From assembly GCA_965215185.1 (NCBI GenBank), contig OZ244034.1:1439569-1503568 (forward strand): DNA of 64,000 nt. Direction: 5' to 3'. The notes beneath the pieces are model-generated. The model did no database searches. It worked only from the letters and a program-made list of their open reading frames with translations, and was not told the origin of the DNA. This DNA comes from Acidimicrobiia bacterium (GTDB taxonomy: Bacteria; Actinomycetota; Acidimicrobiia; Spongiisociales; ZC4RG35). The translations under genes were made by a program, and so were the position numbers. Positions 16,844-33,717 of this stretch are shown in pieces; within the stretch, counting starts at the first letter, position 1, and each line of letters starts with the position of its first letter.

Positions 16844-17671
16844 TCAACAAAAGCTTACCGAGACCGATCCCAGCCGGTCGAAGACTGCCCATACCGTATC
16901 TGCGGGTTTTACCGCAATTGCGGCGTGAAGAGCGCCGGTTAGGACGAAACTTCCCGCGGTGAGTTCCTCTCCGTATCGGGCCAACTCGTTGGCAAGCCAG
17001 GCCAACGCGGTGAAAGGACTGCCCATGCACGCCGCTCCCGCTCCGGTTCCGGCCAGGTCACCGTTGTGGTAAATGGCCATCCCGCACCACCGCAGATCAA
17101 AGTCGACCGGAACCACCCGGTCGCTCAACACCGCGGCTCTTGACGAACCCAGATCGGCAACCGTGTCCACCAGCTTGATACGCCAGTCCGCCACCCGGGA
17201 GTCGACCACCTCGATGGAGGCCACTGCCCCTTCCACCGCCCGAGAGGCGGCCAGGGCTGTTACGCCCGGCCCGCGCAACGTCTCTCCCACCATCAGTGTG
17301 ATCTCCGCCTCGGCCTTGGGGGCGATCGCCGAGTCGATGTCCACCCGTTCGCCGCTGTTGTGGGCCATGGTCGAGATCACCGGCGCATAGTCGGGCGTGT
17401 TCACTCCCAGCAGCTTTTGCATGGGCTCGGAGGTCAGCCCGAGTTTGTAGCCGATCAACTCTCCCCCAAGCCACGAAATGAGTTTCTCCGCGAACATCTT
17501 TTGGATGGCGTGAGCATCCTCCACTTCCAGGGTGGGGTCCATGTCGCTGAGCGGCTCGATCGGCACTCCACTGCGATATGAGTCGAACAGGATGTCTGCC
17601 CATCTATTCAGTACGCGCTTGTTCTTCATGGCCTTCACAAAGATAGCCAGCCACCGCATATGTCGAGGCAA
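16844..17671 (-). CDS. 2-keto-4-pentenoate hydratase / 2-oxohepta-3-ene-1,7-dioate hydratase family protein
   Basis: MhpD/HpaH-like layout (GYKLGLTS, ELARYGEEL, SFVLTG). Confidence 0.6.
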   Translation of the reverse strand: MPRHMRWLAIFVKAMKNKRVLNRWADILFDSYRSGVPIEPLSDMDPTLEVEDAHAIQKMFAEKLISWLGGELIGYKLGLTSEPMQKLLGVNTPDYAPVISTMAHNSGERVDIDSAIAPKAEAEITLMVGETLRGPGVTALAASRAVEGAVASIEVVDSRVADWRIKLVDTVADLGSSRAAVLSDRVVPVDFDLRWCGMAIYHNGDLAGTGAGAACMGSPFTALAWLANELARYGEELTAGSFVLTGALHAAIAVKPADTVWAVFDRLGSVSVSFC

Positions 17672-17697
17672 CCGCCAATCCTTTTCGTCGGGTAGCC

Positions 17698-18318
17698 TTG
17701 GCTGGTATGACCCGTTTGCTGTTGGTCCGTCATGCCCCGGTGGCCACCACCGGAAAGGTCCTGTACGGTCGAGAAAGAGGACACCACCTCACCAAAGAAG
17801 GAAAGACCGCCACCCGGCAACTTGCCCAACGCCTGGCGGGAGTCGACCTGCGGGCGGTCTACTGCTCACCCCTGGAAAGAACCATAGAAACCGCCACCCT
17901 ATTGGGAAAGCCCCATGAACTTGCACCCGTTGTCGAAGAACAGCTGATCGAAGTGGACTACGGAGAGTGGACGGGACAGGAACTGAAAACCTTGTACAAG
18001 CTGCCGGAGTGGAAAACGGTGGTTCATCAACCCTCCCGGATGCGCTTTCCCGGCGGCGAATCACTGGCAGAAGCCCAATTGCGAGGAACGAGGGCCTGCG
18101 AGAAACTGGTCGGTTTGCATCCGGACGGGGCGATAGCCGTCATCACTCACGCCGATATCATCCGTTTGGTGTTGGGGTTTTATCTGGGACAACCGCTTGA
18201 CCTTCTTTCCAGAATCACCGTGTCCCCCACCTCGGTTTCGGTGTTGAACATCTCCAAAGAGGGGGCGGTGACCGTGGTAGCGGTCAACTCCAACGGAGAT
18301 CCGGCCACGTGGCAATGA
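17698..18318 (+). CDS. Histidine phosphatase family protein (MSMEG_4193-type putative phosphomutase)
   Basis: LLLVRHAPV (RHG-type) motif near the N-terminus and ITHADIIRLV; sits beside DUF3090 and SCO1664 genes. Confidence 0.7.
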   Translation: MAGMTRLLLVRHAPVATTGKVLYGRERGHHLTKEGKTATRQLAQRLAGVDLRAVYCSPLERTIETATLLGKPHELAPVVEEQLIEVDYGEWTGQELKTLYKLPEWKTVVHQPSRMRFPGGESLAEAQLRGTRACEKLVGLHPDGAIAVITHADIIRLVLGFYLGQPLDLLSRITVSPTSVSVLNISKEGAVTVVAVNSNGDPATWQ

Positions 18319-18791
18319 ATAACATCGGGCCGGCAGAGCGGTTCTTGGTAGGCGCCATTGGACCGCCCGGCAAGCGCCGCTTCTATTTCCAGGTAGTGGC
18401 CGATGGCCAGCAGCATTCCATGCTGGCCGAAAAGCAGCAGGTGGAGGCTCTGGCCTCCCAGGGATGGCGCAGCCTGCAGCGTTCCGGGGTGTTGGTGGAC
18501 AACGGGGCGGTGGAAGCCATCCTGGGCACCGATCTGGAAATAGTCGATCCCGCCGGCAGTGAGGACTTTCGGGTGGGAACCATCAACGTCGGGATCCGAC
18601 CGTCGGGCCTTATGAACCTCTCCTTCGAGTCGGATCGAGATGACCAGGGACTGATGTTCATGGTGTCACCCGAGCAGTTCCGAGCCATGGTGGTGATCGC
18701 TCGCAAGTTGGTCAGAGCCGGACGGCCGATCTGTCCCTGGTGTCGACTGCCCAAGGACCCCGATGCTCATGAGTGTCCCGCCCGCAACTGA
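18309..18791 (+). CDS. DUF3090 family protein
   Basis: C-terminal CPWCRLPKDPDAHECPARN cysteine motif typical of the family; overlaps its neighbours. Confidence 0.6.
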   Translation: MAMNNIGPAERFLVGAIGPPGKRRFYFQVVADGQQHSMLAEKQQVEALASQGWRSLQRSGVLVDNGAVEAILGTDLEIVDPAGSEDFRVGTINVGIRPSGLMNLSFESDRDDQGLMFMVSPEQFRAMVVIARKLVRAGRPICPWCRLPKDPDAHECPARN

Positions 18792-19482
18792 ACATCAGAC
18801 CGACCGGCTGGTCATCTCCGATCTGGTGGGCAGGTTCAGGTCCGCCTCCAACGCCACGTTCCTTGGGCGAGATCCCGACGACGATCTTTGGGTCTACAAA
18901 CCGACCGCGGGAGTGCGCCAACTATGGGATTTTCCTGCTCACACCCTGACCAACCGGGAAATCATGGCCTATGAGGTGAGCACCTGGATGGAACTTGACC
19001 TGGTTCCCGAAACGGTGGAGGCCGAAGGGCCGTTGGGGTCAGGAGCAGCTCAGCGCTTTCTGGAACCTGATGTCGACTTTGACATTCGATTGTGGTTCGA
19101 AGACCAGATGCATCCTCGGCTATGGCCGGTGGCGGTGTTCGACCTGGTCGCCAATAACGCCGACCGAAAGCTCGGACACATGCTCAAGGAATCCAAAAGC
19201 GGACGCATCTTCGCTATCGATCATGGCCTCACCTTTCACACCCAGGACAAATTGCGGACCGTACTATGGGGCTTCGCCGGACATCCGATTCCCGACTCAT
19301 GCATGGAATCGGTATCCCGGCTGCGGGAAGCGCTGGTTGGGGAGATGGCGTTGCGGACCGCCGAGCTTCTCACCGAGATGGAAGCGGACGCCCTTCGCCG
19401 CCGAACCGAGAACCTTCTGGACGATCCCGTCCATCCCCACCCCCCGGTGGACCGCTCCGCCCTGCCCTGGCCCCTTTGGTGA
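18763..19482 (+). CDS. SCO1664 family protein (PI3/4-kinase-like fold)
   Basis: Third member of the conserved actinobacterial phosphatase/DUF3090/SCO1664 trio. Confidence 0.55.
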   Translation: MLMSVPPATEHQTDRLVISDLVGRFRSASNATFLGRDPDDDLWVYKPTAGVRQLWDFPAHTLTNREIMAYEVSTWMELDLVPETVEAEGPLGSGAAQRFLEPDVDFDIRLWFEDQMHPRLWPVAVFDLVANNADRKLGHMLKESKSGRIFAIDHGLTFHTQDKLRTVLWGFAGHPIPDSCMESVSRLREALVGEMALRTAELLTEMEADALRRRTENLLDDPVHPHPPVDRSALPWPLW

Positions 19483-19490
19483 CCTAATGG

Positions 19491-20219
19491 CTATTGGATG
19501 GCGGCCAGCGCGGAGAGAACGCCCTGACTCGCTGCCGGATTCAGATCAGGATCGGTGAGCGCCGCCTCCAAGGAGGGGACTTGGCGCATCAAGGCGTTGG
19601 ACACCACCGCCGCATCCTCGGTTCGGGTGGCCCGGGTGATTTCCGCCGTCTCCGACAATCGGTAGGCCAGAACATCCACGAAGGTGGCGATGACATCCAC
19701 CTTCCATAGCAGATCCTCCCCTTGGGCCACCGTCAGCTTGAAGGTCCGATCCTCTGGCGCCGAGGAGGGGGCCAGCCCGAAGTCGGCGAACAGCACCCCA
19801 CCCGCCTGATAACGGCGCTGGGAGACCGACACCAGATCCGCCACGGGGTTGGACAGAAACTCCTCGGTAACCTCGGTAAACCCTGCCCAGAAGTTGACTC
19901 CCACCCCCACTTCTCCTAGCTGCAGATAGTCCGAGACGATCTCGATATCGGCTCCCTCCGTCAGGGCCACCAAGGCCATCTGACCCTCCACAGTCATCCT
20001 TGCCGCCTCCTCCCATCGGCCAGCGGCCAGGGCCGACAAGAGAGCAGAGACGGTCTCCTCCGGCTCGGAGTATCCGGCGGGGGGAGGTGGTAGTGAGGTG
20101 ACAGGGGTAACCGAGTCCGAAACGCCGTCATCGCCGCATCCGGCCAGCCCCACCCCGGAAACCAACAGGGCCGCGGCCAGAATGCCCATTCTCACCGGTA
20201 GTAGGCGCAATCTGCCCAT
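19491..20219 (-). CDS. Putative lipoprotein
   Basis: Signal peptide with lipobox LAGC (MGILAAALLVSGVGLAGCGDD). Confidence 0.45.
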   Translation of the reverse strand: MGRLRLLPVRMGILAAALLVSGVGLAGCGDDGVSDSVTPVTSLPPPPAGYSEPEETVSALLSALAAGRWEEAARMTVEGQMALVALTEGADIEIVSDYLQLGEVGVGVNFWAGFTEVTEEFLSNPVADLVSVSQRRYQAGGVLFADFGLAPSSAPEDRTFKLTVAQGEDLLWKVDVIATFVDVLAYRLSETAEITRATRTEDAAVVSNALMRQVPSLEAALTDPDLNPAASQGVLSALAAIQ

Positions 20220-20740
20220 CAAGACAGCTTCCCGGTTTGTAGGAAGCGATTGCGCACCTGCGAAGACCCCAAACCTGACCTTCCCAACAAAACCCACAGA
20301 TAGAGGAGGCCGATCCCTTCGGCCAGCCATCGCCACGGATCGGACCCAGCCCGGGCTACCGCCCCAGGCCAGAACGGGAGCGTCTCAGCGGGAAACGCCC
20401 ATCCCCCCAAGGGCCACCACAGCACCGTCGTCTCCAGCCAGATCCCGTCTGCCACAAGGTGAATCAGCCATCCCACCATCATCACCATGAGATTGCGCCG
20501 GGCCCGGCCGTGACGATGGGTGAATAAAAGAACCGCCACGCCCACCACCATCGTCACCGCGAGGCTGTGAGCAAAGATCTCGCCCGAGGAGAACGTGGCA
20601 GCCCAGATCAGCGTCCCCACCGGCAAATCCAGCAGGTCGGGCGCCAACGCTCCAGCCAGCAACCATCGCAGATCCGCCTGCGGATCGCGAAACACCCACC
20701 GGAACCCGAAAAGAGCAGTAGCCAGATGCCAAAGGATCAC
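20219..20740 (-). CDS. Membrane-bound metal-dependent hydrolase-like protein (YdjM/DUF457-like)
   Basis: 173 aa, 4-5 TM helices, His-rich. Confidence 0.4.
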   Translation of the reverse strand: MILWHLATALFGFRWVFRDPQADLRWLLAGALAPDLLDLPVGTLIWAATFSSGEIFAHSLAVTMVVGVAVLLFTHRHGRARRNLMVMMVGWLIHLVADGIWLETTVLWWPLGGWAFPAETLPFWPGAVARAGSDPWRWLAEGIGLLYLWVLLGRSGLGSSQVRNRFLQTGKLS

Positions 20741-21189
20741 GAGTCCAGCGCCTGGTTGGCCAGCTGATCGGCCCAGCGGTTCTTCTCCCGGGGTACGTGT
20801 TCGACACTCACCTTCGGGAAGTCAGCCAACAAATGCAGGGCCCGCTGGTGCAGGGGTCGCAGTAATGCAGACTTGACCCGGTAAACACCCATCAGTTGAC
20901 GCACCAGCAGCTGCGAATCCGAGCGCAATGCCAGCCGAGCGGGGCGAAAGTCGGCGGCCATCTCCAATCCCTCCACCACCGCCTGATACTCGGCGACGTT
21001 GTTGGTGCTCCGGCCGATAGCGCGGCTCAGTTCGGCCACCACGTTGTCCGAAGTCGGAGTTCCCCGATACAGGACCGCCCCCACCGCCGCCGGACCCGGG
21101 TTGCCGCGGCAGGCTCCGTCCGTGTAGAGGAAGAAATAGTCGTCCACGAAAAGAGTTAGATCACCAGAATTCTTCGGCAATGCGGGCAC
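20737..21189 (-). CDS. rnhA: Ribonuclease HI
   Basis: DEDD residues in context: LYTDGACRGNPG, NNVAEYQAV, SDSQLLV, NRWADQLAN. Confidence 0.75.
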   Translation of the reverse strand: MPALPKNSGDLTLFVDDYFFLYTDGACRGNPGPAAVGAVLYRGTPTSDNVVAELSRAIGRSTNNVAEYQAVVEGLEMAADFRPARLALRSDSQLLVRQLMGVYRVKSALLRPLHQRALHLLADFPKVSVEHVPREKNRWADQLANQALDS

Positions 21190-21857
21190 CGGGCCGGATC
21201 GGTTTCCGCAGCCCCCTGACGCTCTGATTCGGAAAGCGCCAAATTACAACCACCACAAATGCTTCCCTCCAAGCGACCGGCTGCCACTCCTCCCTTGCTT
21301 CGGCGAAGGGATTCGTACATCTCCAGAATCTCGGAGGGAACCGGGTCGGCGAGTTGGGCTCGATCGGACCGCAGTTTCGCCAATTCGGCGTCGATCTTCC
21401 CCCAGATCTTGCGAACCACCTCTCCCAGATCGCTCTCCAAGGACCGGGCTGTTTCCAATTCGGCCGACAACTCCCCCAGGCGGACCGAGACCTTCTCCCT
21501 GCGTTCCATCACATCCAGCGCTTCGGACTCCCTTTCGGTGATACGTACGCGCAGCGACTGCACTTCCAGCCGACGATTCTCGGTCTCTTTGGAAGTCATA
21601 CCCCCGCCGAACAGCCGCTTTTCAGATATTTTCAGCCGCTCCTCCATAATTTGCAACTCACCGTTGGCCTTGTCGAACTGCAGATCGAGTGACCTTGCCT
21701 CCCCGAGAATCTCGTCATGCTCAGATTCGACAGTCTGCCTTCTTTGGTGCAACCGCCGAAATTCCTCCCACTCCGGCAGGGTCACTTTCCTTCGCTCCAG
21801 CCGATCGATCTCCAGATCAATGGCCTGCAAGGCCACCAGGTCGTAGGAGAGATTCAT
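21156..21857 (-). CDS. C4-type zinc-ribbon coiled-coil protein (COG1579, Rv2229c-like)
   Basis: Coiled-coil body and a C-terminal CGGC...CPHC zinc ribbon. Confidence 0.6.
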   Translation of the reverse strand: MNLSYDLVALQAIDLEIDRLERRKVTLPEWEEFRRLHQRRQTVESEHDEILGEARSLDLQFDKANGELQIMEERLKISEKRLFGGGMTSKETENRRLEVQSLRVRITERESEALDVMERREKVSVRLGELSAELETARSLESDLGEVVRKIWGKIDAELAKLRSDRAQLADPVPSEILEMYESLRRSKGGVAAGRLEGSICGGCNLALSESERQGAAETDPARCPHCRRILVI

Positions 21858-22969
21858 GCCGACAAACTCCCCATCCTGATTATCGGACCCGGACGCAACC
21901 CGGTCAAGTCCAAGGTGTCAGGCGCCACCTGCGCCACCAGTTGCGCCAGCCTCCTCACCCCGGGCCCCTCAGTGGCGGCGTGTCCCGGATCGATCACCTC
22001 CACTCCCAGGTGTGCAGCCTGAGCCATCTGATGATGAGAAACGTCTCCGGTGACGATAAGGTCAGCGCCCGTGGCCGCGGCGGCCGTCAGAAAAGAACCG
22101 CCCGACCCGGGTAGGACCGCCACTTTAGCCACTTTCCTATAGCCCATTCGGCCGCAGCGCATGCCCACCACCCCTAATGCTTCGGCCACTCGGTCGGCGA
22201 ATTCATCCGCCGGGATCGGCTCGCCGAGCATTCCCACCCGCCCCACCATGGGAAGGTTGGCCGACACCGGGTAGAAATCAAATGCCGGCTCCTCGTAGGG
22301 ATGGGCAGCCACCAGCGCGGCAGCCAACGCCGACTTTCTCGCGGCGGGGGCGATCATCTCCAACCGGACTTCAGGAACCCGGTTGCGCTCTCCAACCTCT
22401 CCCAACACCGGAGCCGCACCCTTTTGGGGAAGAAAGCCTCCCACTCCTTGGCTTCGATAGCTGCACCCGCGGTACCTGCCGATCTGGCCAGCGCCAGCCG
22501 ACGCCAACGCCTCGGCCACCTGCTCGGTAGACCCGTCGGGTACAAAGGTCACCACTTTGACTTGAGGGTAGACATCCATAGGCCCGAAGCCCCTCACCTG
22601 CTCCAAGCCCAGGCTGGCAGCCAGAGCATCGGCCGCGCCACCGGTACAGACATCAAAAGCGGTGTGAGCCACAGCCAAGGCCACTCCCATTCTCACCAGC
22701 CGGAAGGCCAGACCCTCCGGCCCTGGCCCGGCTCGCAGGGAACGCAGCGGTCGGAACAGGAGCGGGTGATAGGTGACCAAAAGGTCCACCGGCTCCTCCT
22801 CCAAGACCCCCAGCACCTCGGCGGTTACCTCGTGGCATACCCCGGCCGTTCTCACCGGCTGTTCGGGATCGCCAAGCGTCAAGCCGCTCACATCCCATTC
22901 AGCCGCTTGATCCCAGGGAATTGAGGTGGAGAGCTCTTCCAGCACCGCAGCAACCGAGCGTTCAGACAT
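21854..22969 (-). CDS. Nif3 family dinuclear metal-centre protein (GTP cyclohydrolase 1 type 2 homolog)
   Basis: NIF3 motifs (VTYHPLLF, VLPGSGGSF, TGDVSHH, IDPGHAATE). Confidence 0.75.
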   Translation of the reverse strand: MSERSVAAVLEELSTSIPWDQAAEWDVSGLTLGDPEQPVRTAGVCHEVTAEVLGVLEEEPVDLLVTYHPLLFRPLRSLRAGPGPEGLAFRLVRMGVALAVAHTAFDVCTGGAADALAASLGLEQVRGFGPMDVYPQVKVVTFVPDGSTEQVAEALASAGAGQIGRYRGCSYRSQGVGGFLPQKGAAPVLGEVGERNRVPEVRLEMIAPAARKSALAAALVAAHPYEEPAFDFYPVSANLPMVGRVGMLGEPIPADEFADRVAEALGVVGMRCGRMGYRKVAKVAVLPGSGGSFLTAAAATGADLIVTGDVSHHQMAQAAHLGVEVIDPGHAATEGPGVRRLAQLVAQVAPDTLDLTGLRPGPIIRMGSLSA

Positions 22970-23245
22970 CCGATAAGAAGGGTACCGCGCCCCACCACAC
23001 TATAAACGGGAAACCTATGACCCGCAATAGGCGCGGCAAAAGAGAAATGGTGGGCCTCCAGGTACTGCACCGCGAACTTTCGAGCCGGGCATGACGCTGT
23101 AGCCACTATGCCTCCCGGGCGCCTCGGGCGGGGCCGTACTCAAGGAGCACCGAGCAGCCGGCGATGTTGGCCAAGTCGGATTCAAGGTCAAAGCATTGGC
23201 CAGCCACGATGTCGCAGTAGGAGTCGAAGAAATGGTGGCCAGTTT

Positions 23246-23322
23246 GCCACCACCCCTGACCTGCGCTATAGCAGGGGGTCTCGGGAGGACACCACAATTT
23301 AAGGAGGTAGGACACCACAATT
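23246..23322 (+). repeat. Roughly 77-bp repeat unit copy A, containing two copies of the 13-mer GGACACCACAATT
   Basis: About 85% identical to 24398..24475; 13-mers at 23288..23300 and 23310..23322. Confidence 0.8.
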
Positions 23323-23848
23323 GGAAACCACTCTAGAACGCGGCCCTAGAGTGGCCGCCGGAGCGAAACTGAAAGCACTCGACCAAGAACCGGGGTTCCC
23401 ATGTAAACGTGCTTCCCGGCAGCCGTTGCACGGCAAGCCGACCTACCCGACCCGCTTTTCGACCCAACACCAAGACCCCGGCGGAGCGTTGCAACCACCG
23501 GCGGGAACCAGATGACCACTCCTTTTGCTCGCTTAGCTATTTAGGGAACATCCACTCGAAGTGTCGTTCGCCGGACTCTACATGAAATACCCAATCCTCG
23601 AACCGATCGAGGAAAACCACCAGTTTCTGGTCGTAAACCCCGTATCCGGCATGCACAACCACATTGGGCCGATCCTCTGCGTCCAAGCCCGTTCAGACAG
23701 TGTCGGGGTGAGTTCAACCGCTTCTGATAGGAGCATGGTCTCCAATGGATTAACCAGGACTGCATCAATGTCGAATTTGGTAATCCCGTATTTGAGAGTT
23801 GATCGAGTTATGTAATCGAGTTATGTAGGGGACATCCCTCAAATGTGC

Positions 23849-24136
23849 CTAACGAACAGGAAATAGATAAGTTTCCACGCCTGCCCTTTGGGTGGGATTC
23901 AGGAGGCTGAGGATATGGTCGCGGTCCTTGATCGGGCGGTTAGCGATTCGGCGAGCCGCTCTTTCTGGACTGAGAGCGTTCAAATAGTATCGCCAGTCGT
24001 CATCTGTATAGGCATCGGCCATGGCATCCGCGATTCGCCGTGCCTGCTCTATTTCCTCGGGTCCGGCGGACACCCAATTGCTGGGATCGCGGCCCAACTG
24101 GCAGATAGCCTCTATCTTCTCTGGTGTCCACCGCAT
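23849..24136 (-). CDS. Small hypothetical protein (95 aa) embedded among the GGACACCACAATT repeat clusters
   Basis: ATG at 24136 inside the longer ORF 23849..24349; longer-ORF N-terminus is just translated repeat sequence. Confidence 0.3.
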   Translation of the reverse strand: MRWTPEKIEAICQLGRDPSNWVSAGPEEIEQARRIADAMADAYTDDDWRYYLNALSPERAARRIANRPIKDRDHILSLLNPTQRAGVETYLFPVR

Positions 24137-24300
24137 GTAACCCAAGCATAAAGCTCCCGTAGCGCGCCCTTGAACTAGACGCAAAGCCGTCTTCTTTCCA
24201 GACGATGATCGTGGGACCGGAACCTCACGACCCGCGCTTCGGTTGTCATGGCTCGTCTCCCCGCAACCCCATGGCGAAGTCCTGATTCTGTGAACGGTAA

Positions 24301-24351
24301 GGACACCACAATTCTGAGAGGGGGGGATGTGAGAGGGGGGACACCACAATT
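24301..24351 (+). repeat. Middle cluster: two copies of GGACACCACAATT separated by ggggggatgtgagagggg
   Basis: 13-mers at 24301..24313 and 24339..24351. Confidence 0.8.
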
Positions 24352-24397
24352 GGGAAGCACCTATCCACGGTGTCTCGGTTTTGGTTGGTGGGGGTTA

Positions 24398-24475
24398 GCC
24401 GCCACCCCTGACCTGCGCCTTAACAGGGGTTCTTGGGAGGACACCACAATTGGGGCAGGGAGGACACCACAATTC
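24398..24475 (+). repeat. Roughly 78-bp repeat unit copy B, containing two copies of GGACACCACAATT
   Basis: Direct repeat of copy A; 13-mers at 24439..24451 and 24463..24475. Confidence 0.8.
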
Positions 24476-25347
24476 TGAACCTCGTGAATTCCTCCTCATG
24501 CTGGGGGATTTACCTGGCCCTTCGCGAATTCGTGGGGCGCGAGAACCTTGGATTGTGAAGCTCAGTGGCCCAACTGTGTCGGATGAAGAACCATCGGTTG
24601 AGCCTTTGCTCTCGCCCTTGACCATCCAATTACGGTGGGCTGGCGCGAAAAAGCTATTTCCCGAAGTCAGAGGATTGCCCCAGAAAGATTTTGGAAGGGA
24701 TGTCCGCGGTAGTCGTTCCGGCTCCAGCGAAAGCACCTCGATTCCCTACAGGTACCTGGCGTGGAATACGCGGCACACCTCTCCGGGTTGCCTGAAGTCT
24801 TGCCTCAGGCCCACTTCTATTTCTCGCCAAGCCTCTCCCCTATACCTACCACCAAGCGATAAATCCAGTGTGTTGTTTTGCCCCGTGTCCCGCATCAAGC
24901 ATATCAGTATACTCAAAATACGGGTACTAGAAGGTCTTTAGTGTATCATGTACGCGTCAAGCCGCCAAGACCAATGTGCCGATTCGTAGTCTCTGGCTTT
25001 GATGAACTCCATCATCGACAGCCCATCCTCGCCGTAAGCACCCATCTGCCAAGGGATAGTGAGTTGCTCTGATAGGTCAAAACTTTGGTAGCACACGATT
25101 ATGTCGTCCATAAGTTCTTATATTTGTTCGAAGTCGTATGCTGGTAAACCCGGTGGGCAGCACACGTTCTCGGGGCCCTCTGTGATCATTTGTTTCACGA
25201 GAGCATCCACATCAACACTCGTGGCAGGGCGGGCGGTCATGGTCATACTCCCCTTCATTGTACTATCGGGATGGGTTGCACGCAACCATTAACCCCCGAT
25301 GTTTTACCTTGTGGGAAAGCGAACAATAGCACCAACCTCGGCAAGCT

Positions 25348-25791
25348 CTAGCGGTGGTTGCTCGTTAGTTGATTGTAGAGGTCCTGGGGGCTGTGCCAGT
25401 TGTGTAGTCGTCGTGGCATGAGGTTGAGGTTGTCTTCGATGATGGAGAGGGGTATTTGGCCGATGTTGAGGTTGGTGCTTTTGGGCAGCCAGCGGCGGAG
25501 CATGCCGTTGGTGTGCTCGTTGGTGGCCCGTTGCCAGGGTGATCGGGGGTCGCAGAAATAGACCGAGAGACCGGTCTGCTGTTCGACAGAGCACCATTGG
25601 CTCATTTCTCTTCCTTGGTCCCAGGTGAGCGTTTTCCGCAGAGGTTTGGGAACGCGGGAGAAGGCGTCGCAGATGGCCTGGGCGGTGTGGGGAGCGCGGT
25701 AGCCGTTGGGCAGAGCGGCTAGGAGGGTGTGGCGGGTGACCCGTTCGGTGAGCGTTACCACCGCCGTGCGGTTGTGGGCGCCGATGATCAA
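25348..25791 (-). pseudogene. IS30-family transposase, C-terminal DDE-domain fragment (N-terminal about 200 aa missing)
   Basis: VVTLTERVTRHTLL, VYFCDPRSPWQRATNEHTNGMLRRWLPKST and NLMPRRLHNWHSPQDLY match the IS30 integrase core. Confidence 0.75.
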
Positions 25792-25935
25792 ATCGCCTCA
25801 CCGAGTGACCGGGTTCGAGGCGTTCCTCGATATCGGGAGGACGGTCACCGATGGGTCGGATGTCACCGAGTGGGCTGCGTTTTGCCTGTTCACAGCGGCT
25901 GCGTGGCTTCCGCCGCCTGCGGCGGCTTGGCCGTA

Positions 25936-26110
25936 CGTCTTCTGTGTTCTGGTAGATGGAAGGTAGGGGGGATCGACGTAGATTAGGCAGTCCTGGCCGG
26001 AGAAGCGCTTCATGACATCCAATGCCGGTCGGTTCTCGATTTCAGCGTCTTTCAGACGGTTTGCCAGTTCAGCCAACTCAGACGGAACTCGCTGCCATCG
26101 AATCGACATT
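25936..26110 (-). pseudogene. DNA adenine methyltransferase (Dam/D12-class) fragment
   Basis: IENRPALDVMKRFSGQDCLIYVDPPY corresponds to the Dam motif-IV region (DPPY); flanking sequence is unrelated. Confidence 0.45.
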
Positions 26111-26320
26111 CCGCGCGCGCTGCTTCGACCCGCGGTTCTTCCATCCCGTTTTCTTTGCCAGGTCGCTGGCGTGGGCCTGCCAAACCCGAACGACGAACCT
26201 GCGGGCATCTTCGAGCGAATCGCCGGTCCCCGTGTCCGACAAGTCGTATTACTCTCTTGACCAGGGAGTTGTCTCCAACAGCCAGCACAACTCGGCGGTC
26301 TGATAGCGCAGAGCACGGAA

Positions 26321-26986
26321 GAAGTTGACTACTTCTCCATTCAAGTCGTTGACAAGCTCATCCTCAAACTCCTCACCGAAGGAACGGGAGTCAACGCCAC
26401 CACCCGCATAGTCGGCTGTTCCAAAAACACCGTCCTCAAACTCCTCGCCGACGCCGGACGCGTCAGCGCCCAATATCAAGACCAAACCCTCCGGAACTTG
26501 GAATGCCGCCGCATCCAAGCCGACGAAATCTGGTCGTTCGTGTACGCCAAGAAAGACACCCAGACAGACAACCCCGAAACTGGTGATATGTGGACATGGG
26601 TACCGATCTGCGAAGACAGCAAACTCATACCGACCTGGTGGATCAGCGACTGCACCTACAACACTGGCGTTCTGTTCATGGAAGACCTCGCCAGTCGCAT
26701 GGCTCATCCCATCCAGCTAACCACCGACGGGCTCGCCGCATACCTCGACGCCGTCCAGGACTCCTTTGGTGACTGGATGGTCGACCACCGAATCCTCAAA
26801 CGCAAATACCCCACCGCCCAGACCGCTCGCACCAGCTACATCGAGCCGCAGAACCTCACCATGCGCATGAACATCCACCGCTACTCGCGGCGCACCAACG
26901 CCTTCTCCGGCGCCCTCTTGGTGCGGCAGGCCCCTCACTGCCGCATCTCTGGCGGCGGCCGGCGTGAGTTCGGAGCCCCGGGATAG
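26321..26986 (+). mobile_element. IS1-family transposase remnant (fused InsA-HTH/InsB-like frame, N-terminal zinc finger missing)
   Basis: LTEGTGVNATTRIVGCSKNTVLKLL resembles the InsA HTH; DEIWSFVYAK, ITTDGLAAY and IEPQNLTMRMNIHRYSRRTNAFS resemble InsB; no start codon upstream of the HTH part. Confidence 0.65.
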
Positions 26987-27572
26987 GGCCTTCGTGCGGA
27001 GGGAGCGCGACACCGGCATCCTCGAGGCGTGGGGCACTGTGAGTCCGGAAATCAACCAGATAGCTACGCGATGGAGGCGGAAACTCGCCGGTTTCCACGA
27101 GATAGTGGATGCCTTGGGGGTGGATGTCGGTCCTAACGATGCTCTCCGTTCGCAAGCGGGCATGTTGCTGTCAATGTGTTCGAATGCGGACCTGATGGAG
27201 GAATGGCGGGAGAGAAGGGAGAAACTCCGTCCCGAAGGGGAGGTTCCGGATTGGTACGGGCTCATAGCGGATGTGAATGAACCGGCCTGCATAGTGGCCT
27301 CCGTCCTCCTTGCCGGAGAGGCAAAGAGGCTACGGTGGGCGGGGGTGACCATGGCGGGGGATCCCTCTCCTGTTGATGCTTCTTTCTCCGCAACCGCATT
27401 GCGGTTCGGCACCTTAATAATGATTGTGGCGACCTCTATTGTTTTGACTTGGGTTCTGTTCCGAGGCGACCAAGCCACCATCCTCAAAGCCCGGGCGAGC
27501 GCCGAAAGCGCGGCGACCTGTTCCATTCTTGATGGTATCTGGAACGCAGATAATGACCCGCCATGCAGATAA
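26964..27572 (+). CDS. Hypothetical protein with one C-terminal TM helix (island cargo)
   Basis: 202-aa ORF; codon third-position composition differs from core genes; immediately upstream of the nucleotidyltransferase gene. Confidence 0.4.
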   Translation: MSSEPRDRAFVRRERDTGILEAWGTVSPEINQIATRWRRKLAGFHEIVDALGVDVGPNDALRSQAGMLLSMCSNADLMEEWRERREKLRPEGEVPDWYGLIADVNEPACIVASVLLAGEAKRLRWAGVTMAGDPSPVDASFSATALRFGTLIMIVATSIVLTWVLFRGDQATILKARASAESAATCSILDGIWNADNDPPCR

Positions 27573-27691
27573 GTTCCTTCAAAAGCTATTGACCCAGACC
27601 CCCGATGGGGCCAGGGACTACTCGGTCGACTTGCCCGCCTCGGGGAAATTGTCTTTGGTCGAGAAGATAGGGCTCCCTTATGATCCGCCTT

Positions 27692-28825
27692 ATGACTGCG
27701 ACCAATATCACATCGGTTCCCACTGTGGGGGATGCCCGAAGGGTGGCCGATGTGTTGCCGGGTAGCGTGTTGCTGTTCGGTAGCGTCGCCAAGAACAAGG
27801 CCACTTCCCGGTCGGACATCGACCTTCTGGTCATCCTCGACCACATAGACAGAGACGACCAGAGGCAACTGTTGATGTATCTGGATCACCTGGAAAACAT
27901 GGCCTACGAAGTAGACGAGCGGGCGAACATAGTGGTGATCGACTGGCCGGAGTGGGAATCCCGCCGGAGGGTGCCTCCCAGGGTGGAACACGCAGCCGAC
28001 GCACACGGCATTTGGTTATGTAGACATTCTCCCGGACCTTCTGTAGAATGGGGGAAGATGAAAGACATTCGGCAGGAAACTACGGATACTCTGTGTCACC
28101 ATTTGAGCAACGTTGAAGCCCACCTTAGCCATGCGAACAATCAACTACATCCAAACCATGAGGAACGTTATTGCATTAAGACTCGGGACGAAGATTCGTA
28201 CTGGGGGCAGGTGCGGTTCCGGCTGTCGGCGCTAAACCACTTTTGCCATGTGGTGCTTGAAGAGTCCCTGTTAGCGCTATGTTGTCTGACCGGACAGCCT
28301 TACCATAAGGATCGCCAACACAAGCTGACGAGAATCTTTGAGCGGCTTCCCGACGAACTGCAACGTGTCATGTTGAACATGGATCCCCCCTTGGACGAAG
28401 AGGCCATGGTGTGGATACAGAAGTGGCGGAATGTCAGCACTTACGAGGATGCCTTGCGTCTGTCTACCACTCCCGAGACCACCGAGAAGTTGGGATGGGT
28501 CGCCTCTGATGTGGCCTCACTCACCCACCAAATGGTAGATGTGGCCATCGGAACAACAATCTACGGCGTCTACACAGCCACCATCGCCGACCTAGTAGTT
28601 CGCTTCGTGTATATGGAAGCCAACAATGGAAAACCCGCGTTTGTTGTCACAAACCAATTGGAGGGCAGGGTAGCAATTATGGGTCGAATAATAGATCGGA
28701 TGCGCGTAAGGCTATCCACCAAGGAGTGGCTGTATCCGGGCGGCGTGCCGCCCCACGGGTGGAAATTACCTCCGGCACACCAACCACCCAATGTGTATCT
28801 TCCGTGGGGCGAAACCTGGGACTAG
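27692..28825 (+). CDS. Minimal nucleotidyltransferase (Pol-beta superfamily) domain protein with about 270-aa uncharacterised C-terminal domain
   Basis: LLFGSVAKNKATSRSDIDLLVILD is a canonical GS...DxD NTase motif; C-terminal part contains RLSALNH (Rx5H, HEPN-like). Confidence 0.55.
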   Translation: MTATNITSVPTVGDARRVADVLPGSVLLFGSVAKNKATSRSDIDLLVILDHIDRDDQRQLLMYLDHLENMAYEVDERANIVVIDWPEWESRRRVPPRVEHAADAHGIWLCRHSPGPSVEWGKMKDIRQETTDTLCHHLSNVEAHLSHANNQLHPNHEERYCIKTRDEDSYWGQVRFRLSALNHFCHVVLEESLLALCCLTGQPYHKDRQHKLTRIFERLPDELQRVMLNMDPPLDEEAMVWIQKWRNVSTYEDALRLSTTPETTEKLGWVASDVASLTHQMVDVAIGTTIYGVYTATIADLVVRFVYMEANNGKPAFVVTNQLEGRVAIMGRIIDRMRVRLSTKEWLYPGGVPPHGWKLPPAHQPPNVYLPWGETWD

Positions 28826-28856
28826 GCGGGACACTGCCGCCCTAAATATCTGACAC

Positions 28857-29300
28857 TCACATCAGAGATGTCTGCGCATGCCGCGTTTGGCGGGAATGCC
28901 CCTCCGTACATCCCCTCATAGACACACCCTCCGTCATATAACAACTAGAGCACACCGCGTCGGGAAACACGAGTTCATGTCCCACCCGACCCCGGGGATT
29001 CCACATGAGAAAGCCTCGGGCGCATACGTTGATTACAGAGTTGATGTCTCTGCATATGGGTAGTCCACACTGTTCGCACCGGAAGATCCGTGCCGAGAGG
29101 GGCATCTTCTGGCGATGCCCGCATCGGGAACAGTCGGTGGAGTCGCCCGACCTACCCGGGCAAGTGGTGGAAATGGGGGGAAAGCCGCACACGCGGTACA
29201 TCACCCCCGGCGCCGAGCCGATCATCGCCACTGCCCGGGTCGCCGTCCTGTGTCCATGGGAGTCGCCCGTCGAACTGGTCGACTCAGGCTTGTCTGAGGA
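28857..29300 (-). pseudogene. IS200/IS605-family TnpB (OrfB) C-terminal fragment
   Basis: CSRCGHRQKMPLSARIFRCEQCGLPICRDINSVINVCARG is the TnpB zinc finger plus RuvC-III motif. Confidence 0.55.
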
Positions 29301-29529
29301 GGAGATAAACGAGAAGGCTCTGATATCCGGCTCCCTCGAGCAAGCGGCACTCAGGAGGCAGATGTCCCCCTTTCCCGCCAACAAGTCGGTGACTGAGCAT
29401 CTGTGGACGATCATGCAGACAGACGCCTCTCCCCTGTCCTCTTTGCCCTGATGCCCGGCCGTGTACGCTTGGCAACTGCGGGTGCGCTTTGAGACCGACG
29501 ACGGAGGGTCCACCGAGGAATCGTGGGAG

Positions 29530-29847
29530 ACCATCCACAAGCGTCAGAAGATGCCCTTGGAAGTGAGGATGTGCCGGTGCGAGCAGTGTGGGCTGGTCAT
29601 GTGCAGAGACGTCAACTCTGCCGTCAATGTACGCGCCCGGGGCTTTCCTACCCATAAACCTCGGGGTCGGGTGGGTCATGACCTGGTGTATCCCGACGCG
29701 GTGCGCTATGCAAACCTCTGTTGTAAGACAGTGATCGGTTCAGGCCGAACGATGCAGGCAGACACCGCAGAACAGTATCACCTAGATGACTCTGTCAACC
29801 TAGGTAGACGCAAACCCCCAGAACACGGCCAGCGGGGTTATCGCTAA
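29530..29847 (+). pseudogene. Second, diverged TnpB C-terminal fragment in inverted orientation
   Basis: HKRQKMPLEVRMCRCEQCGLVMCRDVNSAVNVRARGF is paralogous to the minus-strand fragment. Confidence 0.55.
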
Positions 29848-30047
29848 GCGAAGAACGCCGTCTAGGCGTTCGGGATCTATCCATCCCGAACCTCCCAACA
29901 CCACCGCTGTGAACCATACTCCCCACCAACCCCCCAGCAATTGCTGATCACCTTCGTCTTGCTGCATCCAAGCGGCATGCTCCCGACGGATGCGGGTCCA
30001 CTCTTTATGTAAGCCCTTTGGCACCATTCCTGCTTACCCGTGCTCGA

Positions 30048-31000
30048 TCAGGCCTGGACACCGAAGTTATCCGATCGGGCGGTTACCTCCATTACAGCGT
30101 CCTCGCTCGGCCGGGGGTACCGGTCGAGCCTTCTGCGGTCGTGGTGGCGGCTTTTGGCCTGCAACAGTGCCGTGTTCACTGAGTCCTGAGCTAGATGGGT
30201 AAGGCAGGGGTGGCGGAGTTGGTGGAGTGTCCATCCGCCAACCTGGCTGCCGGCTTCTGTCTGCGCGGTGGCGCGTTTGAAGATCCGGGCGGCGCGGTGG
30301 TAGGTCAGCGGGCCAGCCCCGTGCCAGGGCAGAGATCTCGCGCCGGGAGGATCGCCTGCGGTTTGCGGTGGGTGACGAATACAGACCCCCGGCGACGCCC
30401 GGCCAGGTACCGAGGAAGCAGTCGGTCGGTACCAGAGGCCCAATGGATACGTTGACGATGCCCACCCTTGCCGATGATGGTCGCTCCGTTGTGGGACAAG
30501 TCCAAGTCCTCAATGTTCAACGCCAGGACTTCGCTGGCCAGTGCTGCGGTCTCGTACAGCATTCGCCACATAGTTTTCTCCCACAGGTCAATATCTCGCC
30601 GGCACCAGAGCGGTGCCAAGGTGTCGAGCGGGATCGCTTTGGTCTCGTCGCGCTCGATACGCCCCGGCTCGACCCGTACCATCGGCTCGTCGGTGATCCA
30701 GTTGCGTCTCTCGCAGAAAGCCATCAACGACCTAGCCCTGATGCGATGGGTGTTCCAGGTGGACGGCATGGCCCCTCGGTCGTGTCCCCATCGCCGGAGG
30801 AACGCCGCCCCGACCGCTTCCGCCTCGATACGGTTGATCGGGATCTCCCAGCCCAGCTCGTCACCGAGAGCGTCGAGCGTCTGCTGGTAGCCGCGGCGGC
30901 TGTTCGGTCGCAGCTCCTTGGCGGCGAAGAAAGTCTCAACGGCCGTGCGGATCACCGGCCCGCGACGATAGTCGGCCAAGACTGCAACTGGACTGGTCAT
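30048..31000 (-). pseudogene. Tyrosine recombinase / phage-type integrase, frameshifted
   Basis: ORF 30305..31000 carries the core-binding and N-terminal catalytic parts; ORF 30048..30443, in another frame, carries AARIFKRAT...HQLRHPCLTHL...LDRY (HxxR...Y catalytic tail). Confidence 0.65.
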
Positions 31001-31307
31001 TGGTCAAATCCCCTCTTTAGGTCAGATGTTTCGCTGGGGTCATGCAGAAAGGCTAAATGCGGAACGCCAGCAAGCAGCGCATTGTCGAACCGGTCTAGGA
31101 CAGATATTGAGGGAATATCTGACCTATTTGGGCCGAGCCCAGCCCGGTACGGCTCGGAGCATTCTTGTTGACCGACTCCCGGTCCGGACATTGGGAAATG
31201 CAGCAGCCTGATGGGCGGTGCCGTCGGCTGTGGCTTGGCCCTTGGGGTGCATCCGGGCGTTCGGAGGTGGAAGGTCCATATCCGGCCGAAGCCTCTTACG
31301 TGAAGAC

Positions 31308-32648
31308 TCATAAGCCAATATCGAAAGCTGTGGAGCCGTTGGGTCGCAACTGGGGATGGGCTTCGCTTGGGTCGTCCAACCAAGCTGGCGCGTCCCTGGC
31401 CGTGGGGCTTTGTAGCGACAAGTCTCTGTCCAGCCGTGTGATAAGACCGATGACATCGGGTGTTTCGAACACCCGGTAACGTTCCTTGCCGATAGTCCTG
31501 ACTTTAAGCACACCCGATTCGGTGAGTTGGTTCACGGCCTGACCGGTAGCCACCGTCGACCGACGGATCATCATGCCAGCCGAGCGAACGGTGAAGATGG
31601 GCCAAGCAGCTAACCCACCCAAGAGCAGGTCTGCTGCGGACCCCTTGCGAACTGGTCCCGCCCGGGAGCGCAGGTCTGCCTCTAGGGAGGACACGGCTTG
31701 CAGATAGTTGTGCGCCTCGTGGCAGGCGTCCTGGGTAGCCTCCGAGAACAGACCCAGCCATTCCTCCGCGCTGTGGTCGCGAGCTGGGTCGTCGGCCGAT
31801 CCCACATGTCGCCACGCTCTAAGACCCTCGAAGTAGGCATCGCGGGAGCGGGCCAGCACGGCGCTGATGGGCGGCACAAACGCCGGAGCAACACCCCTCC
31901 TCCGGAGAACGGCGTGGATCAAGGCGCGTCCAACCCGGCCGTTACCGTCGGCGAACGGGTGAATTGTCTCAAACTGGGCGTGGGCGACTCCCGCTTGCAG
32001 CAGCGGCGGAACATCTGATCGGTTCACAAAGGCCACAAGATCCTCCAGGAGCGCAGGAACTTCCTCAGGTGGAGGAGGAACAAAAGAAGCACCCACCGGC
32101 GTGTAGCTCGAAGCACCGATCCAGTTTTGGACATCCCGAACCCAGCCTCCCAAACCAGGATGCGCAGACGCTGCCATCAGCCGCCGGTGCACCTCCAACA
32201 GATCGTCCGATCGTAGCGGCCCCCCACCAGAAGCCAAACGGATCGCTTCTTCCATCGCTTCGATGTTTGCCAACACCTCCACCGCTCGCCGATCCGACGA
32301 CCGGCTCCCCTCACGGTGTTCGGCCTCCGCTGTAAGCAACCGCCGCGGGGCAAGCTCGATCTCCTCTATCCTCGACGACGCCATAGCTTCCACCCGCAGC
32401 AGCACATGGGAAAAGGTGTCCAACGGGTGGGGGCCACTTCCTGCGTACCGCCTGTTCAGCGCCGCCACCGCTGTCTCGGCTTCACCCACCGTTGCCATCA
32501 ACTCCAGCGACAAGCGAGGCGCCCACCCTGAGAGACAGTCTGGCACATAAGCCTCGTACCGCCCCCCGCGTCTCTTTCTCGCCACCGAGGCGTCGAACCG
32601 GGAGCGCCAGTACCTAGCGACATACCGGCCCATAACCTTTCCTCCCAA
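31308..32648 (-). CDS. Fic/DOC family protein (AMPylator-type) with C-terminal winged-helix domain
   Basis: Canonical Fic motif HPFADGNGRVGRAL. Confidence 0.8.
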   Translation of the reverse strand: MGGKVMGRYVARYWRSRFDASVARKRRGGRYEAYVPDCLSGWAPRLSLELMATVGEAETAVAALNRRYAGSGPHPLDTFSHVLLRVEAMASSRIEEIELAPRRLLTAEAEHREGSRSSDRRAVEVLANIEAMEEAIRLASGGGPLRSDDLLEVHRRLMAASAHPGLGGWVRDVQNWIGASSYTPVGASFVPPPPEEVPALLEDLVAFVNRSDVPPLLQAGVAHAQFETIHPFADGNGRVGRALIHAVLRRRGVAPAFVPPISAVLARSRDAYFEGLRAWRHVGSADDPARDHSAEEWLGLFSEATQDACHEAHNYLQAVSSLEADLRSRAGPVRKGSAADLLLGGLAAWPIFTVRSAGMMIRRSTVATGQAVNQLTESGVLKVRTIGKERYRVFETPDVIGLITRLDRDLSLQSPTARDAPAWLDDPSEAHPQLRPNGSTAFDIGL

Positions 32649-32690
32649 CTAACCTAACAACAGCATCAACTCTAACCTTAGCTTACAGAG

Positions 32691-33203
32691 GTGGAGCGGT
32701 CGGTAGGGTTCTCCGGTATGAGCAAACCGGTGGAGTGGGGATCCCTTGAGCTGCCGATCCGGCCCGACACCATCATCTCGGAACCGGCCGAGCCTAGGCG
32801 TCCACTTCGGGCCTGCCACCTGCCGGCCATCATGGATGAGGACGACTGGTTCGATGCCTACCGGTACGCGCTCATCCAGTTCGTAGCCGACTGGAACCAC
32901 TCTAACGATCCAGAAGCGTTGATCGCTGACCCTCCTGTGTATGAGGGCGATGACTGGCGGCTTCTGCCCACCATCGCCTCAGTGGTGCATGCTCTGGCGG
33001 ACAGAAAGACTCTGACCGTACCCGAATGGGTATGGGGACACAAAGCACCCGAAGAATGGGTGGTGTTCTGCGATCCTCCCGGTTCCTATTTCTGGCGGCT
33101 GGAAAAGCCGAAGGCACCCTCTACCTGCCTCCACCATCGGGTCTATTTCAATCCACGGCTGTTGGACAAAGGCACCCCCGACTGGTGGCTGCCCTGGAAC
33201 TAG
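32691..33203 (+). CDS. Hypothetical protein divergent from fic
   Basis: 170-aa ORF, no recognisable motif. Confidence 0.3.
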   Translation: MERSVGFSGMSKPVEWGSLELPIRPDTIISEPAEPRRPLRACHLPAIMDEDDWFDAYRYALIQFVADWNHSNDPEALIADPPVYEGDDWRLLPTIASVVHALADRKTLTVPEWVWGHKAPEEWVVFCDPPGSYFWRLEKPKAPSTCLHHRVYFNPRLLDKGTPDWWLPWN

Positions 33204-33613
33204 ACCGACACTCCATCCTCCTGCTCATCCAAAAGGTTGATAAGCAACTGGAAGCCATCACCACCCGGCGGCATAACCTGATGATCGCAGGAGGTGCAGC
33301 GGTGGCTTTGCTGTGGGATGATCAGGTATTTTGCCTTCCTACCCAAGAACGGCCTGCCCCCACTATGAGCAGCACTAGGATTCCTGTGCCGGTCCCATGG
33401 TGCTCTTCGACTAACCGTCACTCACCAGCACCATCCGAAAAATGACCCATGAATGGCCCTTGACACCCCAATGCTTCGGACAGCGTTCACAGCGTATGAA
33501 CCTAAAGGGCTCTTCGCGAAGCCTCACCTAAAGACCCGATAAGGGTTGCTAGTGTTACCGTAAGTGATACCAGACCCCGTCATAACGCCTCTGACCAGGG
33601 GAAACAGGGGTTG

Positions 33614-33686
33614 TGGGCGTTGACGGAATCGAACCGCCGACCTCTTCCTTGTAAGGGAAGCGCTCTTCCATCTGAGCTAAACGCCC
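33614..33686 (-). tRNA. tRNA-Val (anticodon TAC)
   Basis: Reverse complement GGGCGTTTAGCTCAGATGGAAGAGCGCTTCCCTTACAAGGAAGAGGTCGGCGGTTCGATTCCGTCAACGCCCA folds as a cloverleaf with GTTCGATTC T-loop and anticodon loop CTTACAA; CCA is not encoded. Confidence 0.8.
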
Positions 33687-33717
33687 GGCCGTCTCCCTAT
33701 ATTACGACCTCTGTCGA

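Follow-up and report, generated by a model that had tools for sequence, protein, structure and literature searches.

A conserved repeat-bearing module at the edge of a tRNA-Val island in Acidimicrobiia: a candidate relic recombination site

In a stretch of 64,000 nt from contig OZ244034.1 of an Acidimicrobiia bacterium (the whole stretch is hereafter called the window), the 13-mer GGACACCACAATT is present in six exact copies within a genomic island at a tRNA-Val gene. We found that these 13-mers are the paired direct repeats (DR1 and DR2) of a module of ~97 bp on mobile DNA of Acidimicrobiia, and that the modules form a conserved and apparently undescribed family. Our preferred explanation, held with moderate confidence, is that the modules are relic recombination sites of the attachment- or resolution-site kind (att/res-like), left behind by serial insertions, in which the 13-mers would be accessory repeats bound by a recombinase. 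Most knowledge of Acidimicrobiia comes from metagenome bins, and delimiting islands in such bins is difficult. The module can serve there as a usable marker of mobile-DNA junctions, and in the present case it pinpoints a strain-variable island at tRNA-Val and the points at which its cargo is exchanged.

Anatomy, variation and distribution of the module

All six exact copies of GGACACCACAATT are located on the plus strand (23287-23299, 23310-23322, 24301-24313, 24339-24351, 24439-24451 and 24462-24474) and make up a single cluster region in the window; when up to two mismatches were allowed on both strands of the 64 kb, nothing was found beyond these six. None of 100 dinucleotide shuffles of the window reached six copies (shuffle mean 1.4). 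A first-pass annotation, made from the sequence alone, had described the copies as a structured, non-chance array of plus-strand pairs, and this description is borne out, with the small correction that two of its start positions (23288 and 24463) were each one off (23287 and 24462). The outer direct repeats that it had reported as ~78 bp and ~85% identical are also real, and they proved to be longer (23242-23329 versus 24394-24481; 88 nt, 83% identity).

Read 5' to 3' on the plus strand, the module consists of an inverted repeat, a CCCTG-N13-CAGGG box, a spacer of ~10 nt, DR1, another ~10 nt and DR2. The two direct repeats are spaced 22-24 bp from start to start (about two helical turns), and conservation falls off sharply a few nt past DR2. 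The arms of the inverted repeat are separated by 4 bp, GGTGG(G/C)C-AGTT-GGCCACC, which takes the form GGTGGGC-AGTT-GGCCACC in A-type modules; in GGCTCCACA-type (C-type) modules the inverted repeat is perfect, GGTGGCC-TGTG-GGCCACC. On the opposite strand, the tRNA-Val 3' terminus has the same sequence as the left arm of this inverted repeat.

Two full modules and one half are arranged head to tail in the window, all on the plus strand. The first complete module, w1 (23232..23330; nhmmer, 92.9 bits), contains the inverted repeat GGTGGCC-AGTT-TGCCACC at 23234-23251, the CCCTG...CAGGG box at 23254-23277, DR1 at 23287-23299 and DR2 at 23310-23322, all of them read directly from the sequence. The other complete module, w3 (24386..24482; nhmmer, 90.2 bits), has its inverted-repeat region at 24387-24405, the box at 24406-24429, DR1 at 24439-24451 and DR2 at 24462-24474. 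Between them, w2 (24297..24356) is a 3' half that lacks the 5' constant part and matches the nhmmer profile at positions 52-96 only (E 1.2e-8); its 13-mers (24301-24313 and 24339-24351) are 38 nt apart, and the spacer between them is apparently duplicated.

To define the family, one genome per species was scanned for two 13-mers 5-30 nt apart, which yielded eight loci. The whole unit of ~95 nt is common to six of them, from three Acidimicrobiia chromosomes assembled from metagenomes, an 'OM1' bin and a sponge-associated bin (loci used for comparison are designated by L numbers). L001 (Ruminococcus) and L003 (Planctomycetia, a tandem 14-mer) possess only the 13-mer pair without a module, and were rejected as family members. 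A profile built from the units detected additional copies in these loci, some complete and some partial; in one of the L007 copies the shared 5' part leads into another repeat pair, GTGTCACACTTT-N10-GTGTCACACTTT. Scanning metagenomes with the 5' part of the module, GCCACCACCYCTGACCTGSG, added 40 further stretches. In total, 36 distinct module sequences were collected from 32 loci (one to four per locus), and every locus that could be placed belongs to Acidimicrobiia. Copies within a locus are 1-6 kb apart and lie on one strand, head to tail, in 15 of the 16 loci with at least two copies, and the cassettes between the modules of such multi-copy loci are small and toxin-antitoxin- or defence-like. 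The module was absent from IMG/VR (searched with both patterns) and from phage and plasmid collections. Exact repeat pairs are present only once or twice per complete genome of 2.6-2.9 Mb; this low copy number, together with the lack of terminal inverted repeats, argues against the suggestion that the array belongs to a family of miniature inverted-repeat transposable elements (MITEs) or repetitive extragenic palindromes (REPs).

Comparison of the modules revealed that DR1 and DR2 vary together while the 5' part stays constant (GGACACCACAATT, ...CAGTT, ...CGAT, CGTGTCACACTTT and GGCTCCACAT). In true units five repeat types could be distinguished, always as a pair or triplet: GGACACCACAATT; GAGGACACCACAGTT; GGACACCACGAT; (G)CGTGTCACAC(TTT); and GGCTCCACA/GGACTCCACA. 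The motif YCACAnTT is common to all variants. DR1 and DR2 are more similar within a module (identity 0.91) than between modules (0.75; permutation p < 0.0002), the former value being inflated by the 8 of 20 aligned modules that were found through an exact repeat pair (the other twelve average ~0.85). The 5' part is 77% identical between modules and has many invariant positions, and neither this part nor the CAC core of DR1 and DR2 varies among genomes with NIF3 identity as low as ~75%. A constant 5' part combined with concerted change of DR1 and DR2 is what would be expected of a fixed target or core accompanied by repeats that co-evolve with a binding protein, and it is this concerted variation, and nothing else in our data, that points to protein binding by the 13-mers.

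The same pattern bears on a simpler explanation, namely that the modules are passive fragments of old att or tRNA-flank DNA that were spread by tandem duplication and homologous recombination, the identity of the 13-mers being due to recent duplication or gene conversion. Many copies are indeed partial, with the 5' half or the 3' half alone, the islands are rich in pseudogenes and remnants of insertion sequences (IS), and no partner enzyme was found among 69 open reading frames (ORFs) of 14 module-bearing loci. However, passive fragments would hardly keep an invariant 5' part and CAC core over the genomic distances mentioned above, and the fact that repeat pairs change in concert, in five types and with their spacing kept, argues for selection on a paired binding site. 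We therefore regard passive spread as clearly improbable.

An RNA-level function is very improbable. A structured noncoding RNA or cis-regulatory leader, with the GGAGG-like stretches before the 13-mers acting as ribosome or protein sites, would account for the small conserved CCCTG/CAGGG hairpin, in which several C-to-T changes keep G-U pairs on the plus strand, and for the G-rich, Shine-Dalgarno-like tracts ahead of each repeat. On the other hand, the genes downstream of the modules are unrelated and mostly on the other strand. RNAalifold analysis of 20 modules gave only the 5-bp box hairpin (7 pairs, -5.5 kcal/mol, covariation term -0.48), Rfam 15 covariance models had no match at E ≤ 1 in the region 20000-28000, and a sigma-70 scan detected no promoter-like site.

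A strain-variable island at tRNA-Val

The setting of the modules became clear from a relative, L051 (NIF3 77% identical), in which the gene order is PGI, WhiB, tRNA-Val(TAC) and NIF3. Window segments 16851-23055 and 33613-43514 are contiguous in L051 by blastn synteny; thus the intervening 10,557 bp (23056..33612), which are missing from L051, represent an inserted genomic island. Its target is tRNA-Val(TAC) (33613..33686, minus strand; ARAGORN), the same tRNA that separates WhiB from NIF3 in L051, and NIF3 (21854-22969, minus strand) flanks the island on the other side; homologues of this NIF3 place the bacterium in Acidimicrobiia, although an exact look-up gave no record of the protein itself. 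The right edge of the island coincides exactly with the 3' end of the tRNA. A 6-bp sequence, GTGGGC, the complement of the tRNA-Val acceptor end plus discriminator, is duplicated at the two edges (23050-23055 and 33613-33618), and on the island side the tRNA is followed by CAA in place of the ancestral encoded CCA. The tRNA-distal junction, agaaatGGTGGGC (23043..23055, plus strand), is composed of host flank and then GGTGGGC (23049-23055), the reverse complement of GCCCACC, that is, acceptor-stem GCCC, the discriminator A and the first two C of CCA. At the left junction agaaatGGTGGGC is followed by the first island bases, ctcc..., from 23056 onward, and at the right junction ...CAGGGGTT is followed by GTGGGCGTTGACGG.

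Measured from the tRNA-distal edge, the modules are situated 177 nt into the island, and their 5' parts face NIF3. A segment of 172 bp, segment S (23056..23227, plus strand), separates the present junction from a second copy of host flank and tRNA end, agaaatGGTGGCC (23228-23240). Because this second copy directly precedes w1, w1 formerly abutted the target without intervening DNA, at the same position. Segment S is also present in the sister strains L049/L050; neither segment S nor the DNA between modules showed similarity to the other fetched loci. A comparable join was found in L010, which is syntenic (tRNA-Val, PGI, DUF5719) and in which a module is joined to a copy of the locus's own tRNA-Val flank, cataGGGGGGTGGGC. 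In addition, the box pattern CYCTGACC-N7-14-CAGGGG occurs only three times in the 64 kb (shuffle mean 0.01), each time on the plus strand: in w1 (23254), in w3 (24406) and at 33589. The third box (33589..33610) marks the tRNA-proximal end of the island, 2 nt from the tRNA and in the same orientation as w1 and w3; therefore part of the module stands as a direct repeat at each boundary of the island, in the manner of attL and attR.

The island is also variable between strains, and the point of variation falls inside the module. Strain contigs of 97% identity (L049/L050) match the window through GACCTG in w1 (~23263, the first ~30 nt of the module), then diverge in the loop of the box and retain one repeat, GGACACCACACTT. 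Their island (1-9600) is unrelated to that of the window and carries two IS110 copies inserted in Transposase_mut fragments, HsdM and Abi_C. The presence of a wholly different island at the same NIF3-side position indicates fast turnover at this locus.

These features, that is, a variable island anchored at a tRNA, direct-repeat boundaries, tRNA-end copies at the junctions, head-to-tail arrays and a constant core with co-varying repeat pairs, together fit sites of serial integration. Insertion at a tRNA 3' end with the tRNA terminus at both junctions, and a core directly repeated at both ends, are what an att site should display, and both were found. The suggestion in the first-pass annotation that the repeats could be terminal repeats or att sites of a decayed element is therefore favoured by their position at the edge of the 10.56-kb tRNA-Val insertion, their head-to-tail arrangement between small cassettes and the divergence of the sister strain within a module. 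As to mechanism, we suppose that the constant inverted repeat or the box would undergo strand exchange with the tRNA end, and that the 13-mers would be arm-type accessory sites at which the recombinase or directionality factor of the element binds and bends DNA. Repeated insertions at one tRNA would push older elements outward and leave stacked junction scars, and the cassette between the modules (the 95-aa gene and its frameshifted partner, see below) would be cargo. Since the only recombinase gene of the island is frameshifted, the sites are probably relics. The anatomy and conservation of the module, the insertion at the tRNA and the strain breakpoint within the module are shown directly, whereas protein binding, the nature of the enzyme and the precise position of crossover are inferred.

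A complete counterpart of the proposed site exists in L011, where the order is tRNA-Phe, CCTCTGACCTGCG (the most conserved string of the module), a direct-repeat pair and a gene for a 418-aa tyrosine integrase. Among actinobacterial metagenome contigs (L011 7121-7300; L048 2380-2670; L013/L022), the same 13 nt, CCTCTGACCTGCG, come after tRNA-Phe and likewise after part of the 3' portion of another tRNA, and the string itself is similar to a degenerate repeat of the 3' end of tRNA-Phe. Within the module, GTTGGCCACCA-CCCCTGACCTGGG might be a copy of the tRNA-Phe 3' end and trailer.

Partner enzyme, cargo and competing explanations

Several observations weigh against the interpretation of the modules as att/res-like sites. 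First, the resemblance to tRNA is limited: beyond the terminal 10 nt the module matches tRNA-Val with a z score of only ~2, and the better match of its 5' part to the 3' part of tRNA-Phe (21 of 28 ungapped positions, z ~5.5) is only suggestive. The candidate view that the module is a degenerate 3' half of tRNA-Val was rejected as marginal on these scores. Second, the junctions do not always coincide with the module. Segment S separates the present distal junction from w1 by 177 nt, a breakpoint between strains L008 and L052 lies ~77 nt outside the module, and L002 and L007 share a gene for a 523-aa protein whose homology starts not at the edge of the module but ~280 nt past it. Third, the concerted variation of the repeats is subject to ascertainment bias, through the 8 of 20 aligned modules that had been retrieved with an exact repeat pair as the search pattern. 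Finally, the 69 ORFs from the 14 module-bearing loci include no tyrosine or serine recombinase, only DDE transposases. An integrase adjoining the site was not found in the window, where the only candidate is a frameshifted Xer/TnpI-like gene 6 kb away that has a site of its own, and this recombinase family, the only one nearby, is usually not adjacent to modules. It should be noted that the islands are decayed, so the missing integrase is not decisive.

The frameshifted gene (30066-31000, minus strand; tblastn) encodes an Xer/TnpI-like tyrosine recombinase that shares ~50% identity with a family very abundant in Acidimicrobiia (2618 matches). In L008 a recombinase of this type (289-305 aa), whose frameshifted homologue is the window gene, ends 120 nt before a module. 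As the partner of the module the family was rejected: its members in L053 and L054-59 lack a module and have upstream a site of their own, CAGATAT...ATATCTG plus GAATATCTGTCGTAAC. In the window, the palindrome CAGATATT-ccctc-AATATCTG is found upstream of the recombinase gene (~31101-31121), and relatives carry GAGTATCTGTCGTAAG and GAATATCTGTCGTAAC repeats in the same upstream region; the latter two are probably the recombination site of the Xer/TnpI-like family itself. In L054-59 the recombinase gene lies divergently beside a Tn3-family transposase gene. A Tn3-type terminal repeat was also considered as an identity for the module and discarded, the Tn3 inverted repeat of L054 being unrelated to it.

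The enzyme that does recur in module loci is an unclassified DDE_Tnp_1 transposase of 580-631 aa without an NCBIfam match, which we call TnpX. It is often reduced to its last ~90 codons, with the same start nucleotide in two lineages (ACCATCCCCGT), and is followed by a conserved, A/C-rich tail of ~220 nt (ctAAATCGCCAACgaa) and then by the module. TnpX or tail sequences abut tRNA-Val, tRNA-Lys or a module at GGTGGG (L045 7053-8795; L010 4595-6490; L006 4931-5146; L007 108-338), and the TnpX element may be a transposon that targets tRNA ends. Comparison of L045, L038 and L010 yielded no defined left end for it.

This leads to the main competing explanation, in which the module would be the subterminal end of such a transposon inserting at tRNA 3' ends, the 13-mers would be bound by the transposase, and the copies in the window would be solo ends left after decay. 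A good deal is consistent with it. In ~10 of 14 unique loci TnpX, or its C-terminal fragment, and the tail directly precede the module at a constant distance and share its orientation; the type of tail co-varies with the type of module; the TnpX tail adjoins a tRNA 3' end in both L010 (tRNA-Val) and L006 (tRNA-Lys); and DDE transposases are the sole recombination enzymes in the 14 loci. The 6-bp GTGGGC duplication resembles a target-site duplication, and CCACA, which is present in all repeat variants, would be compatible with a ...CA-3' terminus; conservation also ends sharply after DR2. However, the far side of full-length TnpX genes contained neither the module nor its repeats in inverted form (none upstream in L045, and only a 9-nt candidate in L038). 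The joins in L010 and L006 are between tail and tRNA without a module, so the end of the tail, and not the module, looks like the terminus of the element. Moreover, the window has neither TnpX nor the tail, its island ends in a direct and not an inverted repeat, and head-to-tail arrays of one type of end are unusual for cut-or-copy DDE transposition. On balance, we consider a transposon end possible but unlikely.

The cargo of the island offered a further candidate partner. The 95-aa ORF that the first-pass annotation had placed between the clusters (23849..24136, minus strand) is real, and its start has clusters 2 and 3 upstream, on the opposite strand. It opens a two-gene cassette between the modules and is conserved, with 11 homologues of 56-100% identity. 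The second gene (23541..23846, minus strand) is a frameshifted remnant, recognized by three-frame translation against partners of ~100 aa in L062 and L007, where the gene is intact. The break falls at a perfect 13-bp tandem duplication (ATCGAGTTATGTA x2, 23802-23827) just past the stop codon of the 95-aa gene, and this duplication appears to cause the frameshift.

It had been proposed that the 13-mers are iteron-like operators for the small protein, and in its fuller form this explanation holds that the 95-aa protein regulates its own gene through the repeat pairs. The 95-aa family is in fact flanked by modules in four of the five contexts examined (the window, L007, L062-65 and L066), and in the window clusters 2 and 3 are located upstream of the start codon. 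In contrast, the protein does not look like a DNA-binding regulator: its AlphaFold model (predicted local distance difference test 86) consists of six helices and comes closest in fold to the MgtE N-domain and FliG (neither significant), the Pfam match to MgtE_N is below threshold, and the fold search gave no match at E ≤ 0.001 and no helix-turn-helix, ribbon-helix-helix or ParG fold. Different, unrelated repeats flank the same gene (GGACACCACAATT in the window, CGTGTCACACTTT in L007 and L062), in L066 the cassette is inverted with respect to the modules, most modules have no 95-aa gene nearby, and a scan for sigma-70-like promoters found no promoter-like site. The 95-aa gene is cargo and not the gene of a repeat-binding protein, and operators of this kind are extremely improbable.

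No more credible is the idea that the repeats are replication-origin iterons or the partition centromere of an integrated plasmid-like element, the latter having also been raised as a par site. Direct repeats about two helical turns apart do resemble iterons. However, each site has just two repeats, sites recur every 1-6 kb in arrays, unlike origins, and no rep, parA or parB gene is present in the window island or the 14 other loci; matches to plasmid, phage and IMG/VR collections were likewise lacking, and by-eye comparison with DnaA boxes and parS gave no convincing match. Taken as a whole, the first-pass annotation stands in its att-site or terminal-repeat option, whereas its operator, par and MITE/REP options are not supported.

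The remaining cargo shows that the island is a decayed one of the defence or toxin type. Among its ORFs (25798-26707, minus; 28857-29540, minus; 27680-28825, plus; 31308-32648, minus) are a D12 adenine methyltransferase broken into two ORFs (Pfam), a Cas12f/TnpB-like TNB-domain fragment, a nucleotidyltransferase and a Fic/DOC protein. At 24514-24536, starting ~32 nt past w3, the window also contains CCCTTCGCGAATTCGTGGGG, with an exact 20-mer in common with L008 (2171-2190); in L008 this sequence lies exactly at the strain breakpoint beside an ISL3 transposase fragment, and it looks like a remnant of an ISL3 terminal repeat. The 523-aa protein mentioned above (L002 5904-7475; L007 1351-2922, minus strand) is 92% identical between the two loci and has two SAP domains, a C-terminal region that is PD-(D/E)xK nuclease-like by eye and no NCBIfam match; its gene is located downstream of modules of two repeat types.

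Comparison with known recombination systems

The proposed sites have much in common with att sites that carry arm-type repeats, such as those of lambda, L5 and pSAM2: exact insertion at a tRNA 3' end, a short duplicated terminus, direct-repeat boundaries, paired direct repeats a few tens of bp from a putative core, and cargo that varies by strain. They differ in three respects. The window and the other module loci lack an intact integrase that possesses an arm-binding domain, the duplicated tRNA segment is 6-10 nt and not ~40 nt, and the module is a ~97-bp unit conserved across genera that recurs between very small cassettes. Older junction scars displaced from the tRNA are also a feature of tRNA-linked islands such as tycheposons, for which stacking of elements and scars has been described (bioRxiv 10.1101/2020.12.28.424599).

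The resolution site of Tn4430, on which TnpI acts, consists of a core (IR1-4 bp-IR2) and the accessory repeats DR1 and DR2 (PMC2847244), and the module is similar to it in layout and size, with a 4-bp-spaced inverted repeat and two direct repeats on one side. The right arm of its inverted repeat, GGCCACCAC, resembles the repeat motif GGACACCAC, a similarity between core arm and repeat that is good only in A-type modules. However, the module is not located upstream of tnpI within a Tn3-family transposon (none was found beside the TnpI-like genes of L053 and L054-59), and the TnpI-like recombinases in the genomes concerned have their own, distinct site. The ends of DDE elements (TnsB sites of Tn7, Mu and IS21) share direct repeats ~22 bp apart near a boundary, a DDE gene often directly upstream and a short duplication. 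They differ from the module in having an inverted partner; in addition, the transposase here is of the DDE_Tnp_1 (IS4-like) and not the rve type, and the island ends in direct repeats.

A further comparison is with integron cassette arrays, in which attI carries DR1/DR2 and attC sites stand between cassettes, and with clusters of attC sites without an integrase. As in these systems, small, often toxin-antitoxin-like cassettes lie between conserved sites of one orientation (15 of the 16 multi-copy loci), and cassette content is strain-variable, with breakpoints at sites. The most novel possibility is that the module serves as the recombination site for a cassette-shuffling system of Acidimicrobiia that is undescribed and functionally integron-like, with tRNA-anchored arrays of small defence or toxin-antitoxin cassettes, a new type of site (an inverted repeat plus a variable direct-repeat pair) and a non-canonical enzyme that might be TnpX. 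We consider this distinctly unlikely. Compared with integron sites, the module is not an imperfect palindrome of the attC type (its hairpin has only 5 bp), no correctly arranged GTTRRRY/RYYYAAC pair is present, no IntI-type integrase was found, cassettes may point either way, and the start of some shared cargo lies away from a site. If the arrays were actively shuffled, they would constitute a new cassette-exchange system outside the integron paradigm; otherwise the modules are ordinary att scars. The constant core with co-varying repeat pairs offers a route for matching sites to their recombinase.

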